A stretch of 64,000 nucleotides of DNA from Ferruginibacter sp. (GCA_965247085.1 OZ251999.1:4608859-4672858); one strand, 5' to 3'. Counted from the first letter of the stretch, positions 19,895-53,850 are shown. The notes: generated by a model from the letters alone, not told the origin. Numbers and translations are program-made.

Positions 19895-20515
19895 TTATTT
19901 TTTTCTGGGCTGCCTTCTTTTTTTCCATTTTTTTAATCCAATGATGCTAAGTAGCAGTAAAAGAATACAGTACATACTAAGCACCAGGTAGTGCTCTGTA
20001 AAATAAATTGGAATGGCAGCTGCGGTGGCTGCAATGTACCAATACCAGGCTTCAACTTTTTTGGTGGCCAGTAACCAGGTAGCCGTAAAAGCGCTTGCCA
20101 AAACAAAGGCATCGGCCCAGGGTATACGGCCTGCTGCAAAATAAGATCTGAGGTACTGAAGCGTTATACCAAGCAGCAGGTAGCAGGTGCCAAAAAAGGC
20201 AAGCTGCAACAGTTGGCTTTGTTGCGATGAGGCGGTAACACGTATGATGCGGTGCTTTTTCCGGTCCCTTTTTTTCCATTGCAGCCAGCCATAGATACAA
20301 ACGGTAAGATAACAGAGGTCAATCATGATTTCTCCGGGCAATTCTTTATCCAGGCCCAGAAATATATGGATGGCAATGCAGATCCATGCAATAGGATAAA
20401 CATAAATATTTTCTTTATAGCTCAGAAAAAAACAGGCGATCACTGCAAGCAGCAATATGGGCTCAATCAGGTCGTACCCTTTCAATTCGTAATACAGGGG
20501 CCTGATGATATTCAT
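19895..20515 (-). other. PnuC-like (nicotinamide riboside transporter family) 7-TM segment with its own in-frame ATG
   Basis: MNIIRPLYYE... starts at 20515. There are seven hydrophobic segments, with CIYGWLQWKKR, PWADAF..SAFTATWLLATKKVEAWYWYI and a basic KKWKKRRQPRKK tail. This pattern resembles the PnuC family. Confidence 0.65.
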
Positions 20516-21958
20516 CTTGATATTGGTGAGCGAAAAAACCGTACCGCCGAAAGAGGTATTATGCCTGGCAATAAAATGCTGAGGTCCGCCATTGGTAAAA
20601 GAAGGATTGTTATTATTGCCATTTGCTGTAAGTACATTACTGTCACTGATCAGGGTGTCTATTACAGCTCCCGGGTTGGCAAACAGGTACCCGGCGCTGA
20701 AATTGGCAAACGTATTTTTTTGCACCAGTATATTATTGATCTTTAATGCTCCCAGCAGGCCAATTCCCCAATAGGGCCTGGCTGTGGTACTGGCAATGAA
20801 TTGATTTTGCAGTACCAGCAGGTTTTCTATTGAATATTTGTTATCCCCGTCTCTGCCCACCCGTAATGCAAAGCCCTGGTGGCTGCCATCAGACAGGCCA
20901 ATGTTTTCGCAGCGGTTATTTTTTATGGTTACGTTGCGGATCAGGTCGTAAGTTCTGGGAGTGAAGTTTACGATCACGCCCAGGTTTTTCAGCGTATTAT
21001 TTTCTATGCGTACATCGTTGGTCTCAAATTCCAGTACGATACCGTTTTCCAGGTTTTCCTGCCTGCTGGCGGGGCCAATAATATTATCATGTATGTAAAC
21101 ACTGTAGGCATAAGAATCCTTATTCTGATGATTCAGGTCAATAGAACCAATGATGGTGTTGTTGTAAATTTCCAGTCCAAACTCGTTAAACAGCTCAATG
21201 GCAAAGTCCCAGCTCATGCCATCAAAGGCTTCTTTGGTAATGGTATTGTTATAGATCTTGCAACCTCTTAAAAAACCACCATTGTAATACTTTACCGGCC
21301 ATCCATTGGTGCCTTTGGCCCTGCCTGTTTGAGAAATGGTGTTATTATATATCAGCATGCCTTCCTGCCCGCCAATATTCAGGCAGCCACGTCCATAGGT
21401 TTCGTATTTTGCACAGTTGGTAATGGTATTATTGTAACAGCTGTTGCCGGTGGCGTATATGCCCGGTGCCCCGTCTTCATTATCACTTCTGCCTGCCCAA
21501 ACAATACCCCTGTCTTCAAAATCAGTGATCACACAATCATGAATGCTGAAATTGTTGCGGCCCCTTATTTCAATGGCCCATGAAGTGCTTCGGTTATTGC
21601 CGTCTAATTTGATATTACTGATATGCTGATCACCGTTTGTGCCTTCGGGGGATATGGCAACAATAATGGCCGCAAACTCCTGCGTTAATGCCGCACGGAT
21701 AACCGATGCCGGGCCCTCTCCTTCAATACTGACACCCGCGGCAAGCACGGTTCTGCCCACTTCGGTATAGTTACCCGCCATAACATGAATAATATCTCCT
21801 TTTGCAGTTGCTACGGAACTGGCTTTAAGAAGAGACCGCCAGGGATTACTGCTGCTGCCGCTGCCGCTTTCATCACTTCCGGCGGGGCTGATAAAATAAG
21901 TAGTGGCAAAACTGGTATGAAATGATAAAAAAAGTATAAGGGTAAAAAATAGCTTCAT
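19895..21958 (-). CDS. Beta-helix protein (paralog of 15675..19490 N-terminal domain) fused in frame to a PnuC-like 7-TM module
   Basis: The likely start is MKLFFTLILFLSFHTSFATTYFISPAGSDESG at 21958; the ORF track start at 22039 adds 27 unlikely residues. The helix domain is colinear with the 1271-aa paralog up to NNNPSF. It then reads directly into a 206-aa C-terminal membrane domain. Confidence 0.7.
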   Translation of the reverse strand: MKLFFTLILFLSFHTSFATTYFISPAGSDESGSGSSSNPWRSLLKASSVATAKGDIIHVMAGNYTEVGRTVLAAGVSIEGEGPASVIRAALTQEFAAIIVAISPEGTNGDQHISNIKLDGNNRSTSWAIEIRGRNNFSIHDCVITDFEDRGIVWAGRSDNEDGAPGIYATGNSCYNNTITNCAKYETYGRGCLNIGGQEGMLIYNNTISQTGRAKGTNGWPVKYYNGGFLRGCKIYNNTITKEAFDGMSWDFAIELFNEFGLEIYNNTIIGSIDLNHQNKDSYAYSVYIHDNIIGPASRQENLENGIVLEFETNDVRIENNTLKNLGVIVNFTPRTYDLIRNVTIKNNRCENIGLSDGSHQGFALRVGRDGDNKYSIENLLVLQNQFIASTTARPYWGIGLLGALKINNILVQKNTFANFSAGYLFANPGAVIDTLISDSNVLTANGNNNNPSFTNGGPQHFIARHNTSFGGTVFSLTNIKMNIIRPLYYELKGYDLIEPILLLAVIACFFLSYKENIYVYPIAWICIAIHIFLGLDKELPGEIMIDLCYLTVCIYGWLQWKKRDRKKHRIIRVTASSQQSQLLQLAFFGTCYLLLGITLQYLRSYFAAGRIPWADAFVLASAFTATWLLATKKVEAWYWYIAATAAAIPIYFTEHYLVLSMYCILLLLLSIIGLKKWKKRRQPRKK

Positions 21959-22091
21959 GATAAATTTTTCAGCGCCTGTTTTAGGGTAATAACAAAATAC
22001 CCAACGAAGATACTGAATCCTGAAAAAGACAGGCAGCAATTTGAAGCGAATAATTACAAGTGCTGCAGTAGTTGAAGGTGCATTACAAGTT

Positions 22092-22595
22092 CTACCGGCC
22101 TATCATTTCAAGGTTACTCTTTTCAATAAGTGTAACCAATTGCAACCCCATGCTTTCTATTCTTACAGAAGCTCTTTTTCCAACGATGCGTATTAATATG
22201 CCCTGGTAATCCATTAATATGCCCTCTTTTACTTTTACCCGCGCATTTACTTCCAGGGTGCCTTCTACTACCTGCACCGTTTTAAACTCTTTTAAAAACT
22301 TACGGATGGTATCAATTTCACTTTCTTTAATTACAGCCGGCTTACCTAACCAGGTTACATATTTCAATATACCCGGAACCTTTAAAAGCTCCCATTTTTT
22401 ACTGGCTGCAATTTTTACAAATACGTACGATTTAAACAGGGGTTCCAGCACTGTTTTCTTCCTGTCGCTCCATTGCTTTACCACCTTGTTTAAAGGGCAG
22501 TAGTATTCAACTCCCTGGGCTTCCAGTAAGCTGGCTACCTTTTTTTCCCAGCGTGGTTTGGTGTACACGGCATGCCAATGAGGATCTTGTTTCAT
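22092..22595 (-). CDS. UpxY-family (NusG-like) transcription antiterminator
   Basis: The N-terminal NGN-like region is HWHAVYTKPRWEKKVASLLEAQGVEYYCPL and the C-terminal KOW-like region is VKVKEGILMDYQGILIRIVGKRASV. The likely start is MKQDPHW at 22595, not the 22631 ATG. Confidence 0.8.
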   Translation of the reverse strand: MKQDPHWHAVYTKPRWEKKVASLLEAQGVEYYCPLNKVVKQWSDRKKTVLEPLFKSYVFVKIAASKKWELLKVPGILKYVTWLGKPAVIKESEIDTIRKFLKEFKTVQVVEGTLEVNARVKVKEGILMDYQGILIRIVGKRASVRIESMGLQLVTLIEKSNLEMIGR

Positions 22596-22986
22596 TTGTG
22601 TTGATGCTTTGGGGGTTTTTAATTTCAGCATACTGAAATTAAAAAATTATTGCATGCAAAGATAACAGAAATTATACATGATGATTTTATAATATTGTGA
22701 TATCGGGGCTTTGCAAAAGCAGGATAAAACAAAATCTATTTGCTGGTACTAATGCAGGCAAAAAGAAAAGGCTATCATTACGATAGCCCTTTGTGCTGAA
22801 ACCAGAAAACCACCCAAAATTTGTATAAAAAATAAATTCAGTAATTGTAAAAAAAGAGCACGGATTAATTTGTTGTTCAAATATCATTTCCAGGCATACT
22901 TAGTAACGTATACACTACTGGATCTGCAATACAAAGTGAAGGAATGCAGCTGTAATTTAGCAGCGTAGATGTTGGGTATTTTAAAA

Positions 22987-23010
22987 TCAGGTATTTCTAC
23001 CTGACTTTTT
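22987..23010 (-). terminator. Weak hairpin terminator directly after response-regulator stop
   Basis: TCAGGTA-tttc-TACCTGA, a 7-bp stem flanked by A/T runs, abuts the stop codon at 23009..23011. Confidence 0.35.
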
Positions 23011-23677
23011 ACAGGCCAATATGAAAGAGCCCGTTCTTAATGGCAAAAATTACCAGGCCTGCCGTGTTGCGGCAGCCGGCTTTGGCCAGCAGGTTATTCC
23101 GGTGGCCTTCTACGGTGCGGGGGCTGATAAACAACTGTTCGCCAATTTCGGTATTGGTAAATTCCCTGCACAGCAATACCAGTATTTCTTTTTCCCTGCC
23201 GGTAAGTTCTATGGCAATATTGCTCAGGTTTTTAATATCGCCCTGTTTGAACTGCGATGCTTTTCGCATGGCCTGCAGGCTGGCCTGGTTAAAATAAAAA
23301 CCCGTTTTATAAGTGGCACTGATGGCAGTGGTCAGTTCTTCAATTTCGCAGTTTTTAGACAGGTAACCGCAGGCGCCTGCTTCAATCATTTTTGCAATAA
23401 AGCGCTCCTGGTCGTATACCGACAGTATCAGTACTTTTATTGAAGGATATTGTTTTTGTAAAATCCCGTTCAGCTCCACTCCATTCATTTCGGGCATGTG
23501 CATGTCTATAAGCGCAATATCCGGCAGGGCAGTGCCGGTTTGCAGCTGTTCAATAAACTGCTTCCCGTTTTCAGCTTCCTGCAGCAGGGTAAAGCCCGGT
23601 ACCGAACGGATCAGCGAGGCCAGTCCGCTGCGGAACAAGTGTTGATCATCTGCCAGTGAAATCAAAATATCGCTCAT
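23009..23677 (-). CDS. NarL/FixJ-family response regulator (REC + LuxR-type HTH), cassette A
   Basis: The REC domain has DDQ...IALIDMHMPEMNG. The C-terminal HTH is LTGREKEILVLLCREFTNTEIGEQLFISPRTVEGHRNNLLAK. Confidence 0.9.
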   Translation of the reverse strand: MSDILISLADDQHLFRSGLASLIRSVPGFTLLQEAENGKQFIEQLQTGTALPDIALIDMHMPEMNGVELNGILQKQYPSIKVLILSVYDQERFIAKMIEAGACGYLSKNCEIEELTTAISATYKTGFYFNQASLQAMRKASQFKQGDIKNLSNIAIELTGREKEILVLLCREFTNTEIGEQLFISPRTVEGHRNNLLAKAGCRNTAGLVIFAIKNGLFHIGL

Positions 23678-23684
23678 GTAACTA

Positions 23685-24458
23685 TTACTTTTTAGCCGCT
23701 TCCGGCAATATGATCTTAATATAAAATCCCTTGCCCGCTGCGGCAGTTATTTCAAATACACCCTGTATCATTCTTAAACGGGCTTCAATATTCTGCATCC
23801 CCATCCCCGATCTTTTAATTGCATCAGCAGGCATACCAATACCATCATCCTGGTAGCTCATTGTGGTGCAGCCGGCTTCCTTAAAAAATTGCAGGGTAAC
23901 GTTTTTGGCCTGTGCGTGCTTAACGGTATTATTCAGCAGTTCCTGTATGATCCTGAACAAAGCCAGGCTGGTCTTTTTATCCAGTGCATCCAGTGCAGGG
24001 CCCAGGTGGTTTTTAAAATGTAATTGCAGTGTACCCGGGACGGTAAAGGTATCAAATAATTCCTGCAGGGTAAATTCTAACCCAAACAGGTCCAGCCCCG
24101 GCGGCGATAAACTGTGAGAAATAGTGCGTACCGTGTTAATGATATTATCAATAAGGGGTTTGTGTGCAGCATTGGCAGCTTCGCTTTGTGCCATTATCAT
24201 TTTAAGGTTAGAGAGGGAAGCGCCTACATCATCGTGCAGGTCGCGGCCAATTCTTTCCCGTTCCTCTTCCTGCAACTGCAGGGTGGCATGCAGCAGCTGT
24301 TCGCCATAATCCAGTTCGGCTTTTTGCAGGGCTTCTTTTTGTTTGGCAATATTACGCTGGTATCTTAAAAAGAAGAAAATGAAAGCTGCGGCCAGTATAA
24401 AGGTGCCCACCATGGCAAACAATACCAGTAAAAAAATATTATCGGTTACTTTTTGCAT
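23685..24458 (-). CDS. HisKA_3-type histidine kinase with single N-terminal TM and no extracytoplasmic domain, cassette A
   Basis: H-box ERERIGRDLHDDVG and HATPase motifs LNNTVKHA and QDDGIGM. The likely start is MQKVTDNIFLL at 24458; the ORF track start at 24521 overlaps the upstream gene more deeply. Confidence 0.85.
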   Translation of the reverse strand: MQKVTDNIFLLVLFAMVGTFILAAAFIFFFLRYQRNIAKQKEALQKAELDYGEQLLHATLQLQEEERERIGRDLHDDVGASLSNLKMIMAQSEAANAAHKPLIDNIINTVRTISHSLSPPGLDLFGLEFTLQELFDTFTVPGTLQLHFKNHLGPALDALDKKTSLALFRIIQELLNNTVKHAQAKNVTLQFFKEAGCTTMSYQDDGIGMPADAIKRSGMGMQNIEARLRMIQGVFEITAAAGKGFYIKIILPEAAKK

Positions 24459-25087
24459 AACAGAAAGGCTAAAGCGAAAAACAAATACATGCACAAAACC
24501 AGCGCAGCATAAATTACCCATACAATATAATACTCGCGGCTGGAGGCATTGATGATAAAATTAGAAAATACAAATAACATGAACGAACCCGAAAAATAAA
24601 TAAAGATGCCGGAGTTAAAATAAAACTCCGGCAGCAGAAATGTTTTTTTGCCATCGGCAACGGTTGCCAGCCTGGCAAAATAATTGAGTGCAAACAGCAT
24701 ACAAATGATGGCTTCTACCGAACGGGTATAACTGCTGTAGGTGTACACACTCTGAAAGAACAGCGCATTGATGACGCATAGAATAATAAAAGCGGGTACC
24801 AGTATACGGTACAGCAGGCGATTACCGGGCGTATGTAATACTTGTTTGTAAAACCAGCAAAAGAACAGCAGTTCTACAGGTGTATAAATATGTATCAGGG
24901 GTAAATTATTTACATGCATTACCCTGCCGATAATATAGGCCAACAGGCTTACAATGCCTGAAACCAGCAGGTAGTACCAGATGATGGCAGCGCTGCGTGG
25001 TAATACCTTCAGTTTTACTAAGCCAATAATAACAGGCAATAAAACACTGTACGGTACAAATACCGACATAAAGAATTTACTATCCAT
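24446..25087 (-). CDS. 7-TM membrane protein, candidate sensor partner, cassette A
   Basis: 213 aa with seven hydrophobic segments by eye. It overlaps the kinase start by about 13 nt. Its architecture, length and position match 27139..27780. Confidence 0.7.
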   Translation of the reverse strand: MDSKFFMSVFVPYSVLLPVIIGLVKLKVLPRSAAIIWYYLLVSGIVSLLAYIIGRVMHVNNLPLIHIYTPVELLFFCWFYKQVLHTPGNRLLYRILVPAFIILCVINALFFQSVYTYSSYTRSVEAIICMLFALNYFARLATVADGKKTFLLPEFYFNSGIFIYFSGSFMLFVFSNFIINASSREYYIVWVIYAALVLCMYLFFALAFLLCKK

Positions 25088-25093
25088 TTGCTG

Positions 25094-25462
25094 CTAAGGC
25101 TGAAATAAAGGGCTGTTGATATCGCAGGTTTGCGGACAGGGGCTTGTAAAATCAAAGATGGTACTGTCTGCAGGATCACCGGCAGTTGCTCCGGGCATGC
25201 TGATAATATCGTTGCCCTTGATATCTACCGGTACCAGGATGATCTTTAAAGTAGAAATGGTGTCTTTTGTACCCATGGCCAGGTAGGCCCTCACTGAGGG
25301 ACATTGCGAAAATTTAGACAGGTTTACAATATCCTCCATAGGGATATTGAAGGCGCGGATGTAATTGGGATCTTTGTCAATTTTGGTAATGTAATCACGC
25401 CAGTTGGTGGTAATGGCTTCGCCTTCGGCTAAACTGATGCTGTCGGGGAGTTGGTTACTCAT
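25094..25462 (-). CDS. Small conserved hypothetical protein ending in a CPxxC motif, cassette A
   Basis: The likely start is MSNQLPDS at 25462. There is no signal peptide. The C-terminal TSPCPQTCD and the VRAYLAMG...KIILVPVD pattern recur twice in 27784..28752. Confidence 0.6.
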   Translation of the reverse strand: MSNQLPDSISLAEGEAITTNWRDYITKIDKDPNYIRAFNIPMEDIVNLSKFSQCPSVRAYLAMGTKDTISTLKIILVPVDIKGNDIISMPGATAGDPADSTIFDFTSPCPQTCDINSPLFQP

Positions 25463-25687
25463 AAAAAAGGGGGTTGTGTAAGTGAAAAATAAATTATTCC
25501 AAATATAAGCAAAAGGAGTTTCAACCAAAAAGAAATAGTTTTCGTGTATTATATACCGTTATTTGTATTGTAATAATGAATTGCCGGGTGCGGCTACAGG
25601 ATGCGGTAATAGTTGTATATGTAGGTTTAATACTACAAAATCAACTGCCGGAAAGTTAACGGGAAGGGGGGTGGCGCCATGGCATTG

Positions 25688-25718
25688 CCTGCATATTCAC
25701 ATATAAGGCATATGCAGG
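25688..25718 (-). terminator. Hairpin immediately after cassette-B response-regulator stop
   Basis: CCTGCATAT and ATATGCAGG form a 9-bp inverted repeat with a 13-nt loop. There is no clear U-run, so it may be a terminator or an RNA processing or regulatory element. Confidence 0.3.
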
Positions 25719-25720
25719 GT

Positions 25721-26368
25721 TTAAACAGTTACGATGCTGTTTTTAATGGCATACATTACCAGGCCCACCCTTGTTTTTACATTCAGTTTTTCAAACAGTG
25801 CATCGCGGTAACCGTCGATGGTGCGGGGGCTTACAAACATTTTATCGGCAATTTCTTTATAGGTCATTTCGGTGCAGGCATATTTTAAAAAATCGGTTTC
25901 CCTTTCATTTAGTTGTACCAGGCTTTTAAGGCTGCTGCCGCTATCTTCTAATTTATTAATGGCATGCATCAGTTTACCACTTACCAGGTCGCTGTAATAA
26001 AATCCTTTACTCATTACATCTTCAATGGCGGCTTTCAGTTCGGCCGGTTCACTGTCTTTTAAAATATATCCTTTGGCGCCGCATTTAAGCATGCGGATGA
26101 TGGAGGTTTCGTTATCGTACATACTCAGCGCCAGCACTTTTACATCGGGATGGTTTTCCTTTAGCCACTGGGTGGTTTCGTAGCCATCCATTTCGGGCAT
26201 ATTGATGTCCATCAATACCATTTCGGGCAAATTATCCGGGTTGAGCCGGCTGATGAATTCTTTACCATTACTGGCTTCAAAAAAAACGGTGTGCCCCAGT
26301 TTGTTTACCAGTTCGGCAAGGCCATTGCGCAGTAATGCATGATCGTCTGTTAATGCTATTGTTGCCAT
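25721..26368 (-). CDS. NarL/FixJ-family response regulator, cassette B
   Basis: REC domain (DDHALLRNG...VLMDINMPEMDG) plus a LuxR HTH (ERETDFLKYACTEMTYKEIADKMFVSPRTIDGYRDALFEK). Confidence 0.9.
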   Translation of the reverse strand: MATIALTDDHALLRNGLAELVNKLGHTVFFEASNGKEFISRLNPDNLPEMVLMDINMPEMDGYETTQWLKENHPDVKVLALSMYDNETSIIRMLKCGAKGYILKDSEPAELKAAIEDVMSKGFYYSDLVSGKLMHAINKLEDSGSSLKSLVQLNERETDFLKYACTEMTYKEIADKMFVSPRTIDGYRDALFEKLNVKTRVGLVMYAIKNSIVTV

Positions 26369-26390
26369 AGTAAAATGAATCAGTTATTTG

Positions 26391-27146
26391 TTAATTGGTG
26401 GGCACCTCAATGGTTACAAGGGTGCCTTTACCTTCGGTTGACTGTAAATTAAATGTTCCGCCTATTAATTGTGCCCGGTTGAGCATACTTTTTAAACCAA
26501 TGCCTATTTTTTGAGTGGCATCAAAGCCACTGCCGTTATCCACAATCTGCAGAATAAATAGTTGTGGCAGGTATTGCAGTTGCACAGTAAGCTTTTGGGC
26601 TCTTGAATATTTAATACAATTATTGAGTGCTTCCTGCACAATGCGGAAGAGGATCATTTCTTTTTTGGGATCTAGTTTAAAAAGCGTGCCGGTAATTTGT
26701 AATTCTGTTTCAAATGCCCTGGTGCTTTCAATTATTTTTAGTTCGTTGGCAATACTTTCCTGTAAACCCAGTTCGGCAATAATATCGCCGTGCAGGCTGT
26801 GGCTGAGGTTGCGCAGATCGTTAATGGCCTTGCTTACCAAATTTTTAGTATCCTGTATTTTGGGTTCAGTGCTGTTGGGCAACGTATTCAGGTTAAGTTT
26901 GGCAAGGCTTAGTACCTGGCCAATATTATCGTGTATCTCTTCGCTGATGGTTTTTAAAGTTTGCTCCTGAATTTCGAGTTGGGTTTGAAGGAGCTCCTGC
27001 TGGAACTGGGTTTGCATTGACTGTTTTTCAAGCTTATTTTTTTGTTGTTTTCGGGAATATAATGTGGCAAGTAATAGAATAAAAACGCCCAAAAGTAAAA
27101 AGGCAATAACAAAACTGAAAAAGTAGTATTTAATATTCTCAGGCAT
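26391..27146 (-). CDS. HisKA_3-type histidine kinase with single TM, cassette B
   Basis: N-terminal TM YYFFSFVIAFLLLGVFILLLATL, H-box ISEEIHDNIGQ, and HATPase motifs LNNCIKYS and VDNGSGF. Confidence 0.85.
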   Translation of the reverse strand: MPENIKYYFFSFVIAFLLLGVFILLLATLYSRKQQKNKLEKQSMQTQFQQELLQTQLEIQEQTLKTISEEIHDNIGQVLSLAKLNLNTLPNSTEPKIQDTKNLVSKAINDLRNLSHSLHGDIIAELGLQESIANELKIIESTRAFETELQITGTLFKLDPKKEMILFRIVQEALNNCIKYSRAQKLTVQLQYLPQLFILQIVDNGSGFDATQKIGIGLKSMLNRAQLIGGTFNLQSTEGKGTLVTIEVPTN

Positions 27147-27780
27147 TATTCCACTTGTATTTTTTATAGATAACTATTGATAAAATATAGGATAAATAAA
27201 GTAGTAAGAGCAGGCTGTGATTAATTGCTCCAAATAATAAATCTGCTTTATCCCATTTGTTAGCATTGATAATAGGATAGAGAACAAAATAAGTAAAATC
27301 CCCAAGATTGAATAAAAACAAACCAGATGAAAGGAGGAAAAAGTAATTTTTCAATAATGATTCTTCGGTACTTTTTTGAAACTGCTCATATATATAAATA
27401 CAGAAGCAAATTATTACACAACTTTGTCCTGAAAGTAAAGCATAACTATGAAGTATTTTAAAAGGCTGATATATAAAACAAAGTAGGCTGGTAAGCAATA
27501 ATATAATTGATGAAATTTTAGAGAACAATTTCAGGGGTTTATTACCATGAAGCCAGAAAAGGAAAAAATAAAAAGAATACTCGGCAGGGATTGTAAAATT
27601 ATATAATGTAGAGTTTGCATACGGCACTTTATGAAAATAATTGCCAATTAATTCAATGATTAAAATAAATAGAAGAAAAAAAGGCAGCCAGCGATAGCTG
27701 CCTTTTTTTATGTATTTCCAGTAAATTATACTTGTTGAGAATGCAAGAAATTCTACAACATGGTTTTGTGTAATAGTCAT
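27139..27780 (-). CDS. 7-TM membrane protein, candidate sensor partner, cassette B
   Basis: 213 aa with seven hydrophobic segments and an 8-nt overlap with the kinase start. Confidence 0.7.
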   Translation of the reverse strand: MTITQNHVVEFLAFSTSIIYWKYIKKGSYRWLPFFLLFILIIELIGNYFHKVPYANSTLYNFTIPAEYSFYFFLFWLHGNKPLKLFSKISSIILLLTSLLCFIYQPFKILHSYALLSGQSCVIICFCIYIYEQFQKSTEESLLKNYFFLLSSGLFLFNLGDFTYFVLYPIINANKWDKADLLFGAINHSLLLLLYLSYILSIVIYKKYKWNNA

Positions 27781-27783
27781 TTG

Positions 27784-28752
27784 TTAATTGCAGGAGTTGG
27801 GGCAAAGCTCCCCATGATTAAATCCATTATCATCAAACATTATTTTGAATTTACCATTTTTCATAAAACTATTTGGAATAATTTTCCAATTGTCTGTATG
27901 ACCACCTGGAATAAAAGTAGTGGGTACAATAATAAAAGTACTCTGGTTAAGGTAGGCTTGGGTGTGGTTCGTATTAGTTGAAGAGTCTTTATAGGCCCCG
28001 GCATAAATACTTATTCCATTAAGTCTGTTTGCAGGAGTTTTCAAAAATTCAGATAAGATTAATATAGCGCAACGGTTGAACCAAACTGCTTTTGAAAGGG
28101 AATCGCGGTTTGCCATACCCCCTGATGCAGGTTTTTGTCTGTATTCCTTTTCAAATGATGTACCCATAGGCCCCAGGATTCTAAAGTCTACACTATTACG
28201 TGGGTTTGCTGCATCAGAATGTATAAAATTTTTGAAAGAAGGGTTTGCTCCGGCAGGAATCATTATCTCCTGACTCCATTTATCTTCGTGCCCCTTATTG
28301 GAACTGGAACTCACCCTGGGTGAAGTTGGACATAATATTATTGTTGCAGTTTTTTTAGCATCTCCCTGTGTTCCAAAATGTACCCTAATCCCGTCATAAT
28401 CCGGATATCTTACAAGTACATCAGCCATAGATACTACTACTACCGAGTCTACCCAAAAACTGTCAACTAAAGCTAAATTAGGTTTGGCTGAGCCAAATCC
28501 ACGATAAACAGTATCAAAATGCTTCATTAAACTTTCAGCGACCGATCGCTTAATTACAATTGAGCCAAGGCTTTCATTACAGTTTTCCCAAATGGAATCT
28601 GCATTAATATTGTTATCAATTGGATCCATTGCTTCCGTAGACATGGTAATGGGTTCACTAGTTTTTTTGCCGCTATCATTAGCATTACATGCAATAAGCA
28701 AGAAAGAAACAATGGAAAAACAAAAGGGGTAAAAAACATATTTGATTTGCAT
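27784..28752 (-). CDS. Lipoprotein with two copies of the CPxxC-terminated domain, cassette B
   Basis: Lipobox-like FLLIAC. Internal repeats GIRVHFG...TIILCPT and ISIYAGAY...TFIIVPT parallel VRAYLAMG...KIILVPV of 25094..25462. The C-terminus is GELCPNSCN. Confidence 0.65.
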   Translation of the reverse strand: MQIKYVFYPFCFSIVSFLLIACNANDSGKKTSEPITMSTEAMDPIDNNINADSIWENCNESLGSIVIKRSVAESLMKHFDTVYRGFGSAKPNLALVDSFWVDSVVVVSMADVLVRYPDYDGIRVHFGTQGDAKKTATIILCPTSPRVSSSSNKGHEDKWSQEIMIPAGANPSFKNFIHSDAANPRNSVDFRILGPMGTSFEKEYRQKPASGGMANRDSLSKAVWFNRCAILILSEFLKTPANRLNGISIYAGAYKDSSTNTNHTQAYLNQSTFIIVPTTFIPGGHTDNWKIIPNSFMKNGKFKIMFDDNGFNHGELCPNSCN

Positions 28753-28940
28753 AAAATAATTTTTGGTTCGATAATTTTATTAGACCACTAAAGTCAGCAA
28801 TACTTCCCATATACGCAATAGTCTTTACACTTTTTTGTTACCGTGTTTTCACCTTTTAGTTTAAGGTTATTGTACTGATAGTTTAGAATTTGCATTTATA
28901 ATATTTGCGGTATCATCTTTTATAATCAAAACCATAATAA

Positions 28941-30311
28941 ATGAAAAAGATACTGCTTTCTATTGTCTTTTTAACTGTGTTACATGCTTTAAAAGCCCAA
29001 ACCAAAGACAAATCCGATACTGCAAACAAATTAATTATTAATATTGATTACCACACGGGGAAGATAACACATACGTTACAGCCTAAAAACACTTCTAAAA
29101 GAATTCGCCCCAAGGTGGGTTCGTACATTACTATTAATGTTGCAAACCTGCCACCTGGATTTACTGCAAGCGGCGAAGTAGAATTTGAAAATGGTAATAT
29201 TGAAGGCGCCGGCGTTTTTAATAGTTTTTTTAAACCAGAGCAAACGGGTACAACCGCCCCTGATAAATCTGAGGATAAAAATATCGATACCGCCGCAGAG
29301 AAGAAGGCTATTCAGGAAGAAATTATAGTAGCTGCTGCAGTGGTGGATGCCGAAAGCCAGGCGGCTATTGATAATTTATTCAAGGAAAGTAATTCAAAAA
29401 CAAGAATTAATATTAATAATCTTGTAAAGAGCCTGGAAATTGGAGATGTAAATAATTTATTGAAAGACAAGGGTATTATTAACGATCCTCTTTTTTTAAA
29501 GCCTGAAAATAAAGACAAGCTTGCAAAAGCAAAAATAGATTATTACAATCAACAAAGGCTTATTAAAATTGCGTATGATAACCTTAACAGGAAACTTGCT
29601 TTAAAGGATAGTATTATTTTAATTGCACTAAATAAAAAAGATTCATTAGTTACTGCCAAAGCAGAATCTATTGTGCCAAAGAAGGATAACCTTCCTATTT
29701 TTGATATTCAGGTACCCAACAGTGATATAGCCAGTATAAAAGTAGTAATCAAAAAAGACAAAGAGAAAATTGTTAATCAAATACCACTGAGTTTTTATAA
29801 TAAAGCAGGCTATAAGATTGATTTTAGTACTGGTTTTTTTTATACAGGTCTGCAGGATGCAGAGTATAAAGCGGTAAATAAGCTAAGTAGCACTGGCCCT
29901 TTTACAGGTATAGATTCTGTATATCAAATAAAACAAAAACAAAATGGCAAGGGTAAAATTGCTATTGGGTTACTGGCACATTATTATACAAGATGGTTTA
30001 AATACTTTAACCTGGCTGCATCTGGTGGATTTAGCTATCAGGCCGATAACAGGATAATTAATTTTATGCTGGGCACATCAGCCTTGTTTGGAAGCCAGCA
30101 GCGTTTTATATTATCTTTTGGTACTGCATTTGGAAAGGTAAAAGAATTAGACACCAATTTTTTCACAACGGATAAGGATTATCATAAATCAATTGTAAAC
30201 GATAAAACTGAACTGCCCATAACGGAACGGCTTAAAACTTCACTTTTTTTTGGAGTGTCGTATAACTTGGGAACAATAAATAACTCAAAATCGGTAAAGA
30301 GGAGTTTCTAA
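28941..30311 (+). CDS. Secreted hypothetical protein, possible outer-membrane beta-barrel C-terminal half
   Basis: Signal peptide MKKILLSIVFLTVLHALKAQ, a Lys/Asp-rich middle region, and a C-terminal ~170 aa with alternating aromatic/Gly strands (GYKIDFSTGFFYTG, FGVSYNLG). Confidence 0.55.
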   Translation: MKKILLSIVFLTVLHALKAQTKDKSDTANKLIINIDYHTGKITHTLQPKNTSKRIRPKVGSYITINVANLPPGFTASGEVEFENGNIEGAGVFNSFFKPEQTGTTAPDKSEDKNIDTAAEKKAIQEEIIVAAAVVDAESQAAIDNLFKESNSKTRININNLVKSLEIGDVNNLLKDKGIINDPLFLKPENKDKLAKAKIDYYNQQRLIKIAYDNLNRKLALKDSIILIALNKKDSLVTAKAESIVPKKDNLPIFDIQVPNSDIASIKVVIKKDKEKIVNQIPLSFYNKAGYKIDFSTGFFYTGLQDAEYKAVNKLSSTGPFTGIDSVYQIKQKQNGKGKIAIGLLAHYYTRWFKYFNLAASGGFSYQADNRIINFMLGTSALFGSQQRFILSFGTAFGKVKELDTNFFTTDKDYHKSIVNDKTELPITERLKTSLFFGVSYNLGTINNSKSVKRSF

Positions 30312-30953: not shown

Positions 30954-31901
30954 ATGTCACGTCAGTCAATTATTGCAGCTGCTGCTGCCGAAAACGGTAC
31001 TAAAGAATCGCCTGCCAATTCCAACAAAACAAAATACGGCCAATGGTATGGGCTGGATGGGGTAAAGTGGTGCGCCATCTTTGTTAGTTATGTATACTAC
31101 AAAGCAGGTCATCCGCTGGAGGCTATAGACAAACCAAAGGGTTACCAGTCTTGCCAGTCGGGTTTTAATTTTTGGAAAAGGAATCAACGCATCGTAACCA
31201 ACCCGCAGCCCGGCGACATTGTGTTATACGACTGGACGGGAGATGGGGTATGCGATCATACCGGCATTTTTGTTGCCTGGGCAGATGCTTCCAAAACCAG
31301 CTTCCAGGCCTGGGAAGGTAATACCGCACAGGGTAACGACAGTGATGGCGGGCAGGTAATGTTACGTACCCGTAACCGCAGTACTGTAAAAGCCTTTGTT
31401 ACACCCCTGGCTTTAAACAACAGCACTGCAGTAACCACCGCTGCTGCCGACATTATAAAAAAAGGACAGAGCGGGGCAACGGTAACTGTATTGCAGCGCT
31501 TATTGCACAGCCTGAATTATACAGTAAGGGTAGATGGAGAATTTGGAGAGGAAACCGCCACTGCAGTTAAAGCATTTCAACAACAACATCAGCTGCAGCA
31601 AACTGGTACGGTTACGCCCGAACTGATGGGTGCTATTGAAGAAGCAGCAGCCATGCCCAATGTGCCCGAGAAAAGATTTACCAGTGGCTCTTTTATACGA
31701 AAAGGCGACAGTGGTAGTGTGGTGGTGGCCATTCAGCAGTCACTGAACGCAAAAGGTGCCAGACCTAAAATTGATGAAGATGGTGTATTTGGTCCCGGTA
31801 CCACTGTGGCTGTAAAGGCCTTTCAGAAAAAGAAGCGGCTGGTGGCAGATGGTATTGTAGGGCCCGCCACATTACAGGCCCTGGGTATTAGCAACCTGTA
31901 A
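30954..31901 (+). CDS. CHAP-domain peptidoglycan hydrolase with two PG_binding_1-like repeats, no signal peptide
   Basis: CHAP Cys context GVKWCAIFVSYVY and His context CDHTGIFV. Two repeats follow: GATVTVLQRLLHSLNY..VDGEFGEETATAVKAFQ and GSVVVAIQQSLNAKG..EDGVFGPGTTVAVKAFQ. Confidence 0.85.
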   Translation: MSRQSIIAAAAAENGTKESPANSNKTKYGQWYGLDGVKWCAIFVSYVYYKAGHPLEAIDKPKGYQSCQSGFNFWKRNQRIVTNPQPGDIVLYDWTGDGVCDHTGIFVAWADASKTSFQAWEGNTAQGNDSDGGQVMLRTRNRSTVKAFVTPLALNNSTAVTTAAADIIKKGQSGATVTVLQRLLHSLNYTVRVDGEFGEETATAVKAFQQQHQLQQTGTVTPELMGAIEEAAAMPNVPEKRFTSGSFIRKGDSGSVVVAIQQSLNAKGARPKIDEDGVFGPGTTVAVKAFQKKKRLVADGIVGPATLQALGISNL

Positions 31902-36785: not shown

Positions 36786-39773
36786 ATGACCTCAATCATA
36801 AAAACTATAAATAAAAATATCAGCGGCTGTATGAAAATTGTATTAAATGCTATTTTTTTGTTTATTGGCCTGCTGGCTTTTACTGCAGGCTTTTGCCAGG
36901 CCGGCGATTCTGTATCTGTAATTACTACCAAACAGGGCCTGAGTATAAATTCTGTTAATGATATTATGTTTGACAGGGAAGGATTTTTATGGGCAGCCAC
37001 ATCGGATGGATTGCAACGATATGATGGGTACAGCTTTAAAACATTTAAAAAAAAATTATCGGATCCGGCCAGCCTTGGTGAAAACACCTGCCGGCATTTG
37101 TTTGAAGATGCCAATAGAAACATATGGGTAGGGCATAATGCAGTTGTTTCAGTAAAAAGAAAAAGCGATGGCCGGTTTACCACTATAAAAATAAATAACT
37201 TTTATACTGCCTTAAAACCTTTTGCAGAAGACAGTGCCTGTGTATGGATCGCAGGGGAAGATCATTTTTTTATTGTAAATAAAAACACATTCAAAGTTGA
37301 ACATGATTTTACATTCTCTAATAATGTTTTTCCCGATTCACTTACAGCCTTTATAGCCCGGTCGCCGGTTAAAAACTGCGGCATTTTTAATTACTTTTTA
37401 AAAGCAAATGCAATTGCTTTTAAAAAGTATCATCTTACAGATGACGTCACAAACGGGGCAGAGAAAAATATATATACACTGTTTAATTTTTTTTCTGGCA
37501 GTGCAAATCCTACAGTTAGCCAGGATGGAAAAATATATACAGTTACTGCTTCTGCAAGACTTTCATTATTTGAATATGTTTTACTCATTAACAATAAAGG
37601 ATTTTGTATCTATAATACCAAAACAGCCCGTCTGCAAAAACACCCGCTGTCTGATTTAATTGAAAAAAATATTGATTACAGACTGGTAACCGGTATGGTG
37701 CTGGATGCCGGAAAAAATATTTGGTTTTCGCAATCGGGTAAGGGAGGAATTGTTTGCATAAAAAATGTGAAACATCCGTTCAGAACATTTATTAAAAGTA
37801 ATAAAGATGTACTGATATACGGGCTGCAAAATGACCGGGATAATAATATATATGTTTCAGCCTACAGAAAATTTATCAACGCATATAATGAAAAGGGGCA
37901 ATTTTTTAAAACCTTCAACTCACCTGTTTTAGAAACGACCCCGGGCAGTAATGTACCCAATACGATACGGGCCTTAAAAATGATTAACAGTAAAGAATTT
38001 CTGCTACTAAGTACAAGTGGCCAGGCCTTACTGTTAAATAGTAAAACATCATCGGTTAAAGATATTACCGGCAATATTCCTGTATCTAAAAAGGTAGTGA
38101 ATGATTTTTTTGATCTTCAGATATTTCAGCTGGATAGTAATACTTTTATCTTTAACCATTTTAATCAGCTGGTCAAACTAACTGTAAAAAATACCACATT
38201 CAATTTAGAAACAGTTTGCAAAATAGCAGCAGAACAAAACATTACATCTTTTTATCCCCTGAACAATAATCGCTGGTTATTGGGTACCACCAATGGCTTA
38301 TTTACAAGTACACCCGAAAATTGTATTCTTTTAAAATCAACATCGGGGATACATGTAAAATATATTGCTAAAGACCAACCCGGCAGATTTTGGGTGGCAA
38401 CAGAGGCGGGCATTTTTATTATAAAAGATGGTACACTTATTAAAACATTAACTGAGCAAAATGAACTTTCCAGCAGCTTTATTTATGGAATTTTATTTGA
38501 TAAAAAAAACCGGGCCTGGTGCAGCAGTAATAAAGGATTGATGCGGATAGACAGCTCATTTAATGTTAAAGCATTTACCCAATCAAACGGCTTACTGAAT
38601 GACGAGTTTAACACGAATGGTTTTTTAGCGCACCCCAACGGCAATTTTTATTTTGCCGGTTTAGAAGGGATTGACTACTTTAACCCTGATGAATTTGAAG
38701 AAGATAGCAGCATTTCTGCAATTCACCTGGCAGATGTAAAAGTAAATTATGCCAACTATGCCTTTACCAAAAATGCTGATGGATCCATTTCACTTTCTAC
38801 AACTTTTGACAAGAATAATCTTTCCTTTTCCTTTTCGGTAATGGATTTTTATAATCCTTCAGTTAATCAGTTCAGCTATTATTTAAAAGGGTACCAATCC
38901 GAATGGTCGCTGCCCACAAATAATAATGAGGTGAATTACATTTTACCTCCCGGGGAATACACCTTATTGGTAAAAGGTGCCAATCATAACGGCGTTTGGA
39001 TTTCCACTCCCCTGGTAATTAAAATTTCTATCGTACCGGCATGGTATCAAACGGCTGGGTTTAAGTGGGGGCTGGGTTTTGCCGGCATATTACTAATTGG
39101 AACTGCTTTGTATTATGTAAGCAAAATAAAATACCGGAGAAAATTAGCCGTACTTAAAATGCAGCAACAGGTACAGGAAGAAAAAGAACGGATAAGCCGC
39201 GATTTGCACGATAACCTGGGCTCTCAAATGGCGCTACTTTCTAATAATGTAGAAAACCTGGAAATTAATTTTAAAAAACATCAGCATATAGATGATAGCC
39301 TAGAAAAAGTAAAAGGTACATCAAAGCAATTGCTGCAAACCTTACGCGAGGCTATCTGGATTCTGAACAAAGAACAGGTAACTGCACAGGATTTTTTTGA
39401 CAAACTGATTGATTATGCACAGCGTTACCTGCAATCCTGTCCGGGTGTACAGTTGCGGGTAACAGAGGATTTTTCATTTCAAAAAATACTTAATTCCAAT
39501 GAGGCCTTACAGCTATTTCGTATTTGCCAGGAGGCAATAGCAAATGCCTGTAAGTATGCTGAAAGCACCGTATTGCAGCTGGAAGGAAAAACGGAGCAAA
39601 ATAATTTTGAAATTATTATTCAGGACTTTGGGAAAGGCTTTGATATGGATAACATACATGGCGAAGGGCATTATGGATTAAAGAATATACAGCAAAGGGC
39701 AAAGTCTGTTAACGCAAGGTTACTGGTACATACAGCAGCAGGAAAGGGTACCAGGGTGGCAATAAAAATATAG
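36786..39773 (+). CDS. Sensor histidine kinase with periplasmic two-component-regulator propeller / Y_Y_Y region and HisKA_3 core
   Basis: Repeated ...D..G.LW..T..GL..YDG motifs (DREGFLWAATSDGLQRYDGYSF). A late TM is FKWGLGFAGILLIGTALYYV. The H-box is ERISRDLHDNLGSQ and the HATPase motifs are IANACKYA and QDFGKGF. The true start may be MKIVLNAIF at 36831. Confidence 0.85.
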   Translation: MTSIIKTINKNISGCMKIVLNAIFLFIGLLAFTAGFCQAGDSVSVITTKQGLSINSVNDIMFDREGFLWAATSDGLQRYDGYSFKTFKKKLSDPASLGENTCRHLFEDANRNIWVGHNAVVSVKRKSDGRFTTIKINNFYTALKPFAEDSACVWIAGEDHFFIVNKNTFKVEHDFTFSNNVFPDSLTAFIARSPVKNCGIFNYFLKANAIAFKKYHLTDDVTNGAEKNIYTLFNFFSGSANPTVSQDGKIYTVTASARLSLFEYVLLINNKGFCIYNTKTARLQKHPLSDLIEKNIDYRLVTGMVLDAGKNIWFSQSGKGGIVCIKNVKHPFRTFIKSNKDVLIYGLQNDRDNNIYVSAYRKFINAYNEKGQFFKTFNSPVLETTPGSNVPNTIRALKMINSKEFLLLSTSGQALLLNSKTSSVKDITGNIPVSKKVVNDFFDLQIFQLDSNTFIFNHFNQLVKLTVKNTTFNLETVCKIAAEQNITSFYPLNNNRWLLGTTNGLFTSTPENCILLKSTSGIHVKYIAKDQPGRFWVATEAGIFIIKDGTLIKTLTEQNELSSSFIYGILFDKKNRAWCSSNKGLMRIDSSFNVKAFTQSNGLLNDEFNTNGFLAHPNGNFYFAGLEGIDYFNPDEFEEDSSISAIHLADVKVNYANYAFTKNADGSISLSTTFDKNNLSFSFSVMDFYNPSVNQFSYYLKGYQSEWSLPTNNNEVNYILPPGEYTLLVKGANHNGVWISTPLVIKISIVPAWYQTAGFKWGLGFAGILLIGTALYYVSKIKYRRKLAVLKMQQQVQEEKERISRDLHDNLGSQMALLSNNVENLEINFKKHQHIDDSLEKVKGTSKQLLQTLREAIWILNKEQVTAQDFFDKLIDYAQRYLQSCPGVQLRVTEDFSFQKILNSNEALQLFRICQEAIANACKYAESTVLQLEGKTEQNNFEIIIQDFGKGFDMDNIHGEGHYGLKNIQQRAKSVNARLLVHTAAGKGTRVAIKI

Positions 39774-39789
39774 TGGTTTAAACAGGGAA

Positions 39790-39807
39790 ATACCATACAG
39801 AGGGTAT
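39790..39807. promoter_or_regulatory. 18-nt palindrome-like site ATACCATACAGAGGGTAT
   Basis: Same length and ATACC...GGTAT ends as 36693..36710, located 35 nt upstream of the response-regulator ATG. Confidence 0.4.
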
Positions 39808-39841
39808 AGATAAGTATAAATTATTTTTTAACTTTTGTACC

Positions 39842-40507
39842 ATGCATATTGCAATTGTAGATGATAAACCATATTTGCGGCAGTCGCTTAAAGAAAAACT
39901 GGCATCCATTGAAAATGATGTTACTGTTATTATGGAAGCAGGAGACGGTGCTGATTTTCTAAAAAAAATGAAAGCCACCCAGCAAAAGCCGGATGTGGTA
40001 CTGATGGATATTGAAATGAATGAACTGAATGGTATTGAAACTGTACAACGTGCCGCACCACTTTTTCCAGCCGTAAAGTTTATTATGCTTACTGTGTTTG
40101 ATGATGATGAAAGAATTTTTAACGCTATTAAAGCAGGCGCACACGGCTATTTATTAAAAGAAGCCACTGCGCAAAATATTATTGATGCCATTTACCAGGT
40201 ATACCAGGATGAGGGGGCACCTATGAGCCCGGGGATTGCCCGTAAAGCATGGAAATGGTTAACGTCATTTACAACTCCGCCAGCTACAGATAAAGCGGTT
40301 CCAAAAAATGATTTTGAACCCCTCAGCGAAAGAGAGAAGGAAATATTAAAATGCAATATGGAAGGCAAAGAGTATACTCAAATTGCCGACGAGCTTTTTT
40401 TAAGCAAACACACTGTGCGCCAGCACATGAAAAATATTTACCGCAAACTGCATGTAAACAGCAAGGTGGAAGCACTGCAAATCAGCCTGAAAAATAAGTG
40501 GATCTGA
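39842..40507 (+). CDS. NarL/FixJ-family response regulator
   Basis: REC domain (VLMDIEMNELNG) plus a LuxR HTH (LSEREKEILKCNMEGKEYTQIADELFLSKHTVRQHMKNIYRKL). Confidence 0.9.
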   Translation: MHIAIVDDKPYLRQSLKEKLASIENDVTVIMEAGDGADFLKKMKATQQKPDVVLMDIEMNELNGIETVQRAAPLFPAVKFIMLTVFDDDERIFNAIKAGAHGYLLKEATAQNIIDAIYQVYQDEGAPMSPGIARKAWKWLTSFTTPPATDKAVPKNDFEPLSEREKEILKCNMEGKEYTQIADELFLSKHTVRQHMKNIYRKLHVNSKVEALQISLKNKWI

Positions 40508-53209: not shown

Positions 53210-53850
53210 ACAAAATAATTTTTAATGGCCACCGCCACCAGTTTGGAAAGGGTGCTTACGCCAAATTTTTGCATGATCTTCTTTTTATGCGTGTCTACCG
53301 TGGCAAAACTTAAATACAGCTGCTGTGCAATTTCCTCGGTGGTGAATCCGTCGCAGTATTTACCCAGTACTTCTTCTTCTCTTTTTGTAAGGGCCTCTTT
53401 TAAATAAAATTCACTGTTAATGCTCACCTTAACGGTGGACGTATTGATATAATTCACAGCATCCGAAATGTACTTATTTTTATTTTCAATGGCGGCAATG
53501 GCTTTGTTTATTTCCAGTGCATCGCAGCTTTTGTGCAGGTAAGCATTGGCGCCCTGCTCCATACTGGTGTCCACATATTTTTTATCAGCTGTCATCGACA
53601 GCATTACCACCGGCATCCTGTACCCGCTGCTTCTTAATTTTTTTAAGGTAGAAATGCCGTCACCCTCCGGCATGTACACATCTAAAAACACCCATGCCGG
53701 TGTTTTTGCATTACAGGCTTTCAGCACTTCTTCTCCATTGGTAAAAATGCGGATGTTGCCATACCCCAGCTGCTGCAGCAGGCTGCTGATGCCCTGTGCC
53801 ACCATAATGTGGTCGTCGGCTATGTATATCAAATCGCTTTTTATCTCCAT
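53206..53850 (-). CDS. NarL/FixJ-family response regulator
   Basis: REC domain (ADDHIMVAQG...FLDVYMPEGDG) plus a LuxR HTH (LTKREEEVLGKYCDGFTTEEIAQQLYLSFATVDTHKKKIMQKF). It has a 4-nt overlap with the kinase. Confidence 0.9.
   Translation of the reverse strand: MEIKSDLIYIADDHIMVAQGISSLLQQLGYGNIRIFTNGEEVLKACNAKTPAWVFLDVYMPEGDGISTLKKLRSSGYRMPVVMLSMTADKKYVDTSMEQGANAYLHKSCDALEINKAIAAIENKNKYISDAVNYINTSTVKVSINSEFYLKEALTKREEEVLGKYCDGFTTEEIAQQLYLSFATVDTHKKKIMQKFGVSTLSKLVAVAIKNYFV

Follow-up and report, generated by a model that had tools for sequence, protein, structure and literature searches.

Two tandem four-gene cassettes in Ferruginibacter as candidate two-component systems with a separate seven-helix input partner

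The histidine kinases VraS and LiaS work with accessory membrane proteins (PMC3543457; bioRxiv 10.1101/2025.01.23.634444). Their partners VraT and LiaF have a segment of four transmembrane (TM) helices and a cytoplasmic 'Toastrack'/DUF4097 domain (PMC11237479), and in Enterococcus a further exposed protein, LiaX, feeds into LiaFSR (PMC10269926, PMC3543457). A stretch of 64,000 nucleotides (nt) of Ferruginibacter sp. DNA (GCA_965247085.1 OZ251999.1:4608859-4672858; the window, meaning the whole stretch analysed) carries at 23009-28752 eight minus-strand genes which, by open reading frame (ORF) calls, form two tandem sets of four, cassettes B and A. Each set encodes a protein of a family here called X, a seven-helix membrane protein (7TM), a HisKA_3 histidine kinase (HK) and a NarL-type response regulator (RR). 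The cassettes are read here as accessory-receptor-dependent two-component systems, in which 7TM would be the membrane input partner of a kinase that has no sensor of its own and X a co-sensor or modulator (rough probability 0.6). The eight genes, from the 5' end of cassette B, are:

X-B, 27784-28752, minus strand: ORF of 322 residues, a predicted lipoprotein with two tandem X domains and the C-terminus NHGELCPNSC-N
7TM-B, 27139-27780, minus strand: ORF of 213 residues, a seven-helix membrane protein starting 3 nt past the X-B stop
HK-B, 26391-27146, minus strand: 251 residues, a single-TM HisKA_3 kinase (Pfam HisKA_3 30.6 bits, HATPase_c 44.4 bits)
RR-B, 25721-26368, minus strand: NarL/FixJ-type regulator (Pfam Response_reg E 2.5e-26, GerE E 3.7e-12)
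X-A, 25094-25462, minus strand: 122 residues from a conserved ATG, a single X domain with the motif PCPQTCDxxSPLF
7TM-A, 24446-25087, minus strand: ORF of 213 residues, a seven-helix membrane protein starting 6 nt past the X-A stop
HK-A, 23685-24458, minus strand: 257 residues, a single-TM HisKA_3 kinase (Pfam HisKA_3 30.5 bits, HATPase_c 40.1 bits)
RR-A, 23009-23677, minus strand: NarL/FixJ-type regulator (Pfam Response_reg E 3.9e-23, GerE E 7.2e-14)

This repeated gene order had been proposed in an earlier note on the same DNA, and all eight ORFs bear it out. The overlaps that the note gave for the 7TM stop and the kinase start are exact by coordinates, at 13 nt in A (24446-24458) and 8 nt in B (27139-27146). 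HK and RR lie 22 nt apart in B and 7 nt apart in A, and a spacer of 258 nt separates the two cassettes. Two starts were placed by comparison: the mechanically called ORF of X-A reaches 25528 and its start was set by orthologues of 119-136 residues, while that of HK-A reaches 24521 and its start was taken at the conserved MQKVTD. The MQKVTDN start of HK-A and its 13-nt overlap are kept in most orthologous loci. The best explanation for each cassette is a single operon encoding a four-part signalling unit.

The closest described systems are LiaFSR (Bacillus, Enterococcus, Streptococcus) and VraTSR (Staphylococcus). Like these, the cassettes combine a HisKA_3 kinase on a minimal anchor and a NarL-type regulator with a gene for an accessory membrane protein immediately upstream in the operon, whose control of the kinase would here be by analogy. 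However, 7TM and X are unrelated to LiaF/VraT and have no DUF2154/DUF4097 'Toastrack' match; LiaS and VraS have two TM helices, and LiaS a HAMP domain, whereas the cassette kinase has one helix and no HAMP. The cassettes also differ in that the partner has seven TM helices and no soluble domain, in that an X-domain protein is added, and in that they belong to Bacteroidota rather than Firmicutes. DesK-DesR shares the HisKA_3 core, the NarL-type regulator and, if 7TM provides the input, perception purely in the membrane, but DesK works without a partner and spans the membrane with five helices, where the cassettes have a one-helix kinase and an obligatorily linked seven-helix protein.

A further parallel is the Rcs system, whose logic joins a Cys-containing lipoprotein (RcsF), a polytopic inner-membrane protein (IgaA), a histidine kinase and a GerE/NarL-type regulator. 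Cassette B resembles RcsF-IgaA-RcsCDB of Enterobacteria in this logic, the Rcs side of the comparison being general background, with no sequence relationship; the NCBIfam similarity of cassette proteins to RcsB and RcsC is generic only. IgaA, unlike 7TM, has large periplasmic and cytoplasmic domains, and Rcs is a multi-step phosphorelay with hybrid kinases and dispersed genes. The module thus appears analogous in logic to LiaFSR/VraTSR or RcsF-IgaA-Rcs, not homologous to them, and a member of none. Accessory-dependent two-component logic is known; its being built from two unannotated families appears to be new. The earlier note knew of no characterised example of this architecture, and none came to light: there is no relative in Pfam, NCBIfam or the PDB, and no description of the module was found in the literature searched.

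Gene order was followed in 59 related loci, which came from one exact look-up, 20 genome loci found with a 7TM-A profile, 30 metagenome loci found with a 7TM-B profile (down to 25% identity) and five arbitrary representatives of the exhaustive family search described below. The A and B alignments were used separately because a combined 7TM alignment was too diverse for a scan of genome contigs. Where at least 850 nt of downstream sequence was available, a short HisKA_3 kinase was the next gene on the same strand after 49 of 50 distinct 7TM genes; in the sole exception a second 7TM gene intervenes, followed by the kinase. A NarL-type regulator came next after the kinase in 44 of 47 cases. An X gene lay upstream of 59 of 62 7TM genes, and the other three have a small upstream gene that the X profile missed. 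The 7TM genes are therefore syntenic with HisKA_3 kinases well beyond this genome, a point on which the earlier note had proposed gene-order statistics, and its suggestion that the cassettes work as three- or four-component systems agrees with the conservation of the four genes as one unit across the related loci. These loci belong to Chitinophagaceae, Sphingobacteriales and Flavobacteriales; named members include Ferruginibacter, other Chitinophagaceae, Crocinitomix, Kriegella, Pedobacter and Mucilaginibacter, always annotated as 'hypothetical protein'. No other neighbour is conserved across the collected loci.

Some loci carry variants of the unit. In a related Chitinophagaceae genome (L001, 650-8049; the same region as L025) three cassettes stand in tandem, the first with a Cys-less X-like protein (125 residues) and without its own regulator. 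At L056 (4001-5438; the same as L057) two tandem 7TM-family genes precede one kinase, whose 7TM partner may thus be heteromeric.

Separation of 7TM from the kinase recurs across the related loci. At 55 junctions the kinase start falls anywhere from 49 nt before to 48 nt after the 7TM stop, most junctions overlap (by 1 to 49 nt), and the kinase is out of frame with 7TM in all but two. No 7TM-kinase fusion occurs in the related loci examined or among the best 150 of 7,742 family representatives, all of which are stand-alone proteins of 114-269 residues. The two are thus separate polypeptides, as had been supposed, at the 55 junctions and among these 150 representatives.

Both kinases are members of the HisKA_3-type class (NarX/LiaS/DesK), with a HisKA_3 domain that includes the H-box ('LHDDVG' and 'IHDNIG' in the two kinases) followed by HATPase_c. 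The HisKA_3 scores (30.5 and 30.6 bits) lie above the Pfam gathering cut-off of 24 and those of HATPase_c (40.1 and 44.4 bits) above that of 26.4. The regulators belong to the NarL/FixJ family (Response_reg 82 and 92 bits, GerE 52 and 46 bits). Both cassette kinases begin with 6-8 residues and a single hydrophobic helix; a K/R cluster comes next, and then a coiled coil continuous with the H-box, which confirms the description of a kinase with one TM helix and essentially no extracytoplasmic loop. Neither cassette kinase has a HAMP, PAS or periplasmic domain. In all loci examined 0-17 residues precede the single TM helix, and 55 of 55 kinases have one hydrophobic helix before the coiled coil. 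They therefore follow the Mascher definition of intramembrane sensing (two TM helices with a very short external linker) in spirit, having no external domain, and depart from its letter, having one helix only.

In NCBIfam the best curated relatives of the kinases are LiaS, UhpB, MctS and NarQ, all matched far below the equivalog cut-offs; among solved structures VraS and DesK come nearest, those of DesK at E 4e-6. The TM helix is as well conserved as the catalytic domain (major-residue frequency 0.48 vs 0.48). Two other HisKA_3 kinases in the window carry sensors, TPR in one and Reg_prop/Y_Y_Y in the other, indicating that it is the cassette kinases in particular that lack one. These two kinases belong to further HisKA_3/NarL-type systems at 36786-40507 (plus strand) and 51539-53850 (minus strand), with a Reg_prop/Y_Y_Y kinase and a TPR kinase, so that four paralogous two-component pairs lie within 64 kb. 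A system of the BceRS-BceAB type was considered and rejected: no ABC transporter is found in the cassettes or as a conserved neighbour, and the regulators are GerE-type, not OmpR-type.

The 7TM proteins have no Pfam or NCBIfam match at E ≤ 0.1. Among 127 diverse family representatives, Pfam matches were single and at noise level, for example HlyIII (0.0063) and DUF3522 (0.0051) in one member each, and a PDB sequence-profile search with the family gave noise only, with a small multidrug resistance (SMR) transporter at E 0.037. There was no significant profile match to 7TMR-DISM_7TM, 5TMR-LYT, MASE, PAQR/HlyIII or CPBP in the family. When 1.84 billion representatives were searched exhaustively with a profile whose seed alignment contained 7TM-A and 7TM-B, the family amounted to 7,742 clusters at 50% identity with E ≤ 1e-3, and 3,036 with E ≤ 1e-10. 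Homologues of 7TM-B are all 183-237 residues long.

An AlphaFold2 (AF2) model of 7TM-A shows seven long helices (predicted local distance difference test, pLDDT, 92.2; predicted template modelling score, pTM, 0.88). Counts of lysine plus arginine are 2.1 in loop 1-2, 1.6 in loop 5-6 and 2.4 at the C-terminus, assigned as cytoplasmic, and about 0.3 in each of loops 2-3, 4-5 and 6-7, assigned as outside; a topology with the N-terminus out and the C-terminus in is therefore predicted, with very short loops. The kinase helix is also predicted to have its N-terminus outside, so a simple fusion to the cytoplasmic end of 7TM would place the kinase domain in the periplasm. On these predictions the split into two proteins looks obligatory.

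Conservation of 7TM residues was computed over the 127 representatives. E72, in mid-membrane in helix 3, is conserved in 98%, followed by N61 in an outer loop (94%), G160 (91%), Y201 (89%), N107 (83%) and Q112 (77%), while H66, T69, Y120, R122 and H193 are conserved at 65-69%. Conserved polar positions concentrate in helices 3, 4, 5 and 7, on their periplasmic half, which would fit a periplasm-facing or membrane-accessible pocket around the buried glutamate E72.

In its predicted topology and GPCR-like (G-protein-coupled receptor-like) bundle 7TM resembles sensory rhodopsin II, which is paired with HtrII, and other pairs of a 7TM receptor and a transducer, with sideways signalling as the analogy. 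Unlike sensory rhodopsin II, it has no retinal lysine in TM helix 7 and no rhodopsin among its structural matches, and its partner would be the one-helix kinase itself. It also differs from the fused 7TMR-DISM sensor kinases, as Pfam matches it neither to 7TMR-DISM_7TM nor to another 7TM sensor domain. A microbial rhodopsin or rhodopsin-like photoreceptor was rejected, as helix 7 (183-210 in 7TM-A, and also that of 7TM-B) contains no lysine; the lysines near it are confined to the cytoplasmic C-terminus. In Pedobacter polaris (L053, 1-2792) genes for phytoene synthase, lycopene cyclase and FA_hydroxylase lie just upstream of the X-7TM-HK-RR genes; despite these carotenoid genes, the absence of a lysine from helix 7 makes a retinal photoreceptor unlikely. 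A hydrolase of the PAQR or CPBP type was likewise rejected, with no profile match and no PAQR, Rce1 or rhodopsin among the top Foldseek matches.

The X proteins have no Pfam or NCBIfam match at E ≤ 0.1, and a PDB profile search gave nothing. The AF2 model of X-A is mediocre (pLDDT 67.9) and its Foldseek search returned no match at E < 0.3. X-B has a lipoprotein-type signal peptide, 'FLLIAC', in which the Cys of 'LLIAC' was read from the sequence, and is built of two tandem copies of one domain of about 110 residues (hhalign 99.4%, E 1.5e-21). It ends in ...HGELCPNSCN, and the ending NHGELCPxxC is conserved among its lipoprotein-form relatives. X-A lacks a signal peptide and carries ...SPCPQTCDINSPLFQP; in 39 homologues its C109, P110, C113, D114 and S117-P-L-F are invariant, and in the X-A-type motif PCPQxCDxxSPLF both Cys, the Pro and the Asp are invariant. 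The C-P-x-x-C spacing with a nearby His presumably resembles the thiol/copper site of Sco-type proteins, a lead rather than a result.

X-A aligns weakly to the second copy in X-B, in register with CPxxC (E 4e-4). An iterated profile seeded with X-A matches X-A (2e-25) and X-B (4e-56) and reaches all X-B-type proteins, while an iterated search seeded with X-B stalled short of X-A. Among 1,455 ORFs the X profile gave 66 matches, all directly upstream of a 7TM gene and none off-target, indicating a profile without drift; CPxxC stands at the end in 58 of the 66. A single X family is therefore accepted on sequence grounds, its members being cytoplasmic with one domain, lipoproteins with two, or TM-anchored, and the conserved fourth gene of the earlier note, with its cytoplasmic form in A and lipoprotein form in B, is a real shared domain family. 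In two loci (L006, 5036-5899; L011, 4937-5884) an extra protein of 287-315 residues is encoded between X and 7TM. It has an X-like domain with an internal FTSPCPQxC and then a helical C-terminal extension of about 100 residues, so that its Cys motif is not C-terminal.

The two cassettes had been called paralogous. For the kinases (29% identity, E 5e-28) and the regulators (39% identity, E 7e-53) BLASTP bears this out; for the other two genes it does not, 7TM-A and 7TM-B giving no significant alignment (E 0.06) and X-A and X-B being unrelated by BLASTP, and here only profiles provide the link. The family profiles of 7TM-A and 7TM-B align end to end over 191 columns (hhalign E 7e-5), and a joint alignment has the same conserved columns in both (N61, L64, E72, G160, G167 and Y201). 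Against a profile of the 127 representatives 7TM-A scores 1.9e-66 and 7TM-B 6.1e-43, a profile not fully independent of the window proteins since the search that supplied it was seeded with the joint alignment. The cassettes appear to be ancient paralogues, each with its own specificity.

All four components co-diverge (r = 0.81-0.97). Once the RR signal is removed, the partial correlation of 7TM is higher with the N-terminal 40 residues of the kinase (r 0.58) than with the cytoplasmic part of the kinase (0.37), a difference that is suggestive only. Linkage, translational coupling and co-divergence together make a functional partnership between 7TM and the kinase quite probable, and 7TM and X probably supply the signal to the kinase. 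That 7TM itself is the primary sensor has a little less than an even chance.

Translational coupling places synthesis of the kinase directly after that of the compact 7TM protein, which, as proposed, would pack against the kinase membrane helix, with lateral intramembrane contact controlling autophosphorylation. The phosphorylated NarL-type regulator would alter transcription, and the operon itself may be a target. X would be a module-specific partner built from a new alpha/beta domain, usually ending in (NHGEL)CPxxC. The lipoprotein X-B could carry a periplasmic or envelope cue to 7TM, such as a redox change, a thiophilic metal or docking of its tail, while the cytoplasmic single-domain X-A would act from inside. 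A bolder version is put forward tentatively, with the odds somewhat against it: 7TM would found a large family of stand-alone receptors of GPCR-like topology, with a periplasm-facing pocket around a buried Glu and lateral signalling to a single-pass, sensor-less kinase, and X, periplasmic or cytoplasmic, would be a dedicated co-receptor or tethered ligand; the design would then be Bacteroidota-wide, with no characterised precedent.

Several points weigh against these proposals. The top Foldseek matches of 7TM-A are GPCR bundles with template modelling (TM) scores of 0.45-0.59 at non-significant E values of at least 0.27, and count as no more than a likeness in topology. A Glu/Asn set so close to invariant could just as well belong to an enzyme or a transporter. 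The partial correlations come from a mirror-tree comparison without a significance test, and membrane segments share compositional constraints. The occurrence of X on either side of the membrane, as a lipoprotein or in the cytoplasm, is awkward for a single co-sensor mechanism. Fused or orphan forms of 7TM may exist beyond the best 150 of the 7,742 representatives, and the collected loci, apart from the five arbitrary representatives, are biased to relatives of the two window proteins.

The main rival is that the helix of the kinase itself senses a property of the bilayer, as in a minimal DesK sensor, and that 7TM, like LiaF or VraT, is an inhibitor, a scaffold or a setter of stoichiometry rather than a receptor. 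The kinase is closest to DesK, VraS and LiaS, its TM helix is itself well conserved, and the tight coupling and the order of membrane protein, HK and RR mirror liaFSR (PMC3543457). However, a conserved polar pocket with a buried Glu exceeds the needs of a passive inhibitor, 7TM has neither a LiaF-type cytoplasmic domain nor a Pfam match, and a third conserved partner, X, suggests signal delivery. This alternative is considered unlikely.

Less likely again is that X and 7TM are output rather than input, a small transporter or enzyme with its substrate or partner, co-transcribed with an ordinary minimal two-component system and autoregulated by it. With no further conserved target genes beside the module, the main regulon may consist of the operon itself; the promoter-like motif ahead of X (below) and the weak match of 7TM to an SMR transporter (E 0.037) would suit such effectors, but that match is not significant. 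The kinase would then have no input whatever, whereas the start/stop overlap is specific to the 7TM-kinase pair in nearly all loci and the co-divergence of 7TM with the kinase TM segment exceeds that seen across the operon.

An Agr-like circuit, in which 7TM cuts or cyclises the CPxxC tail of X and the product is sensed as a signal, is very unlikely. The order of a precursor-like protein, a polytopic membrane protein, HK and RR does recall agrBDCA, and X has a conserved Cys motif at its extreme C-terminus. X is, however, a folded, conserved domain of about 110 residues, duplicated in X-B, rather than a short variable propeptide, and its tail motif hardly varies, unlike pheromones, which diversify. 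X-A lacks an export signal, no receptor domain for a peptide is present in the kinase, and Pfam and NCBIfam reveal no similarity to AgrB, AgrC or LytTR. Quorum sensing of the Agr type was accordingly rejected, the kinase being of HisKA_3 type with one TM helix and the X proteins folded domains in chains of 120-320 residues. Finally, an artefact of this genome, one gene split in two by a frameshift or an assembly error, has the overlap of the two ORFs as its only argument and is excluded by the same split, with a stop and a separate start codon, in about 50 independent genomes and metagenomes, by the absence of a fused form from the best 150 of 7,742 representatives and by a predicted topology that makes fusion impossible without an extra helix.

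Little is known about the signal inputs of Bacteroidota, although these dominate soils, oceans and guts. Two families without a model, tied near-perfectly to a sensor-less kinase, are testable candidates for a receptor class and a co-sensor domain, and for annotation X, 7TM, a short HisKA_3 kinase and a NarL-type regulator can be treated as one unit. If 7TM is the input, the concept of the accessory-dependent kinase (LiaF, VraT, BceAB, IgaA) would extend to a GPCR-like partner, and the module would be a simple model in which to study how signals pass from helix to helix inside the membrane.

Two elements that may bear on transcription of cassette A lie at its ends:

Promoter-like motif of Bacteroidetes type, 25500-25528, minus strand: TTG-N19-TATATTTG, a consensus match only, 38 nt upstream of the X-A ATG
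Palindromic hairpin, 22987-23004, flagged on the plus strand with 7 pairs: just past the RR-A stop

A sigma-70 promoter scan was at background (22 found vs 21 expected), so a search for the Bacteroidetes-type motif was used in its place. On the minus strand of 22600-29100 there is only one full match to TTG-N17-21-TAnnTTTG, which lies in the inter-cassette spacer, and the CTTATATTTG motif is also found upstream of X-A orthologues in other genomes. On the minus strand the hairpin is trailed by TTTTAAA only and gives weak evidence for a possible transcript end of cassette A. Directly downstream of RR-A, 22092-22631 (minus strand) encodes a NusG/UpxY-like antiterminator paralogue (PF02357, 1.4e-18), which has its own TAnnTTTG -7-like motif at 22657-22664 and may head a polysaccharide-type operon.

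Further along the same strand, 19895-22039 is an ORF of 714 residues. Its first approximately 500 residues have no Pfam match and resemble, on visual inspection, a secreted right-handed beta-helix with NxT-rich repeats, and its C-terminus is PnuC/NMN_transporter (PF04973, 1.6e-31, residues 525-707), making it either an unusual fusion or two genes merged by the ORF call. On the other side, divergent from cassette B, 28941-30311 (plus strand) encodes a secreted protein of 456 residues with no Pfam match, whose C-terminal third is beta-barrel-like by eye. Genes for peptidoglycan binding or hydrolysis adjoin the module in three loci: CHAP with PG_binding_1 in the window (30954-31901, plus strand), PG_binding_1 in L001 (1-446), and GH25 with PG_binding_1 right after RR in the Pedobacter locus L053 (6314-7174). 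Their recurrence may reflect a cell-wall-related regulon, or chance.

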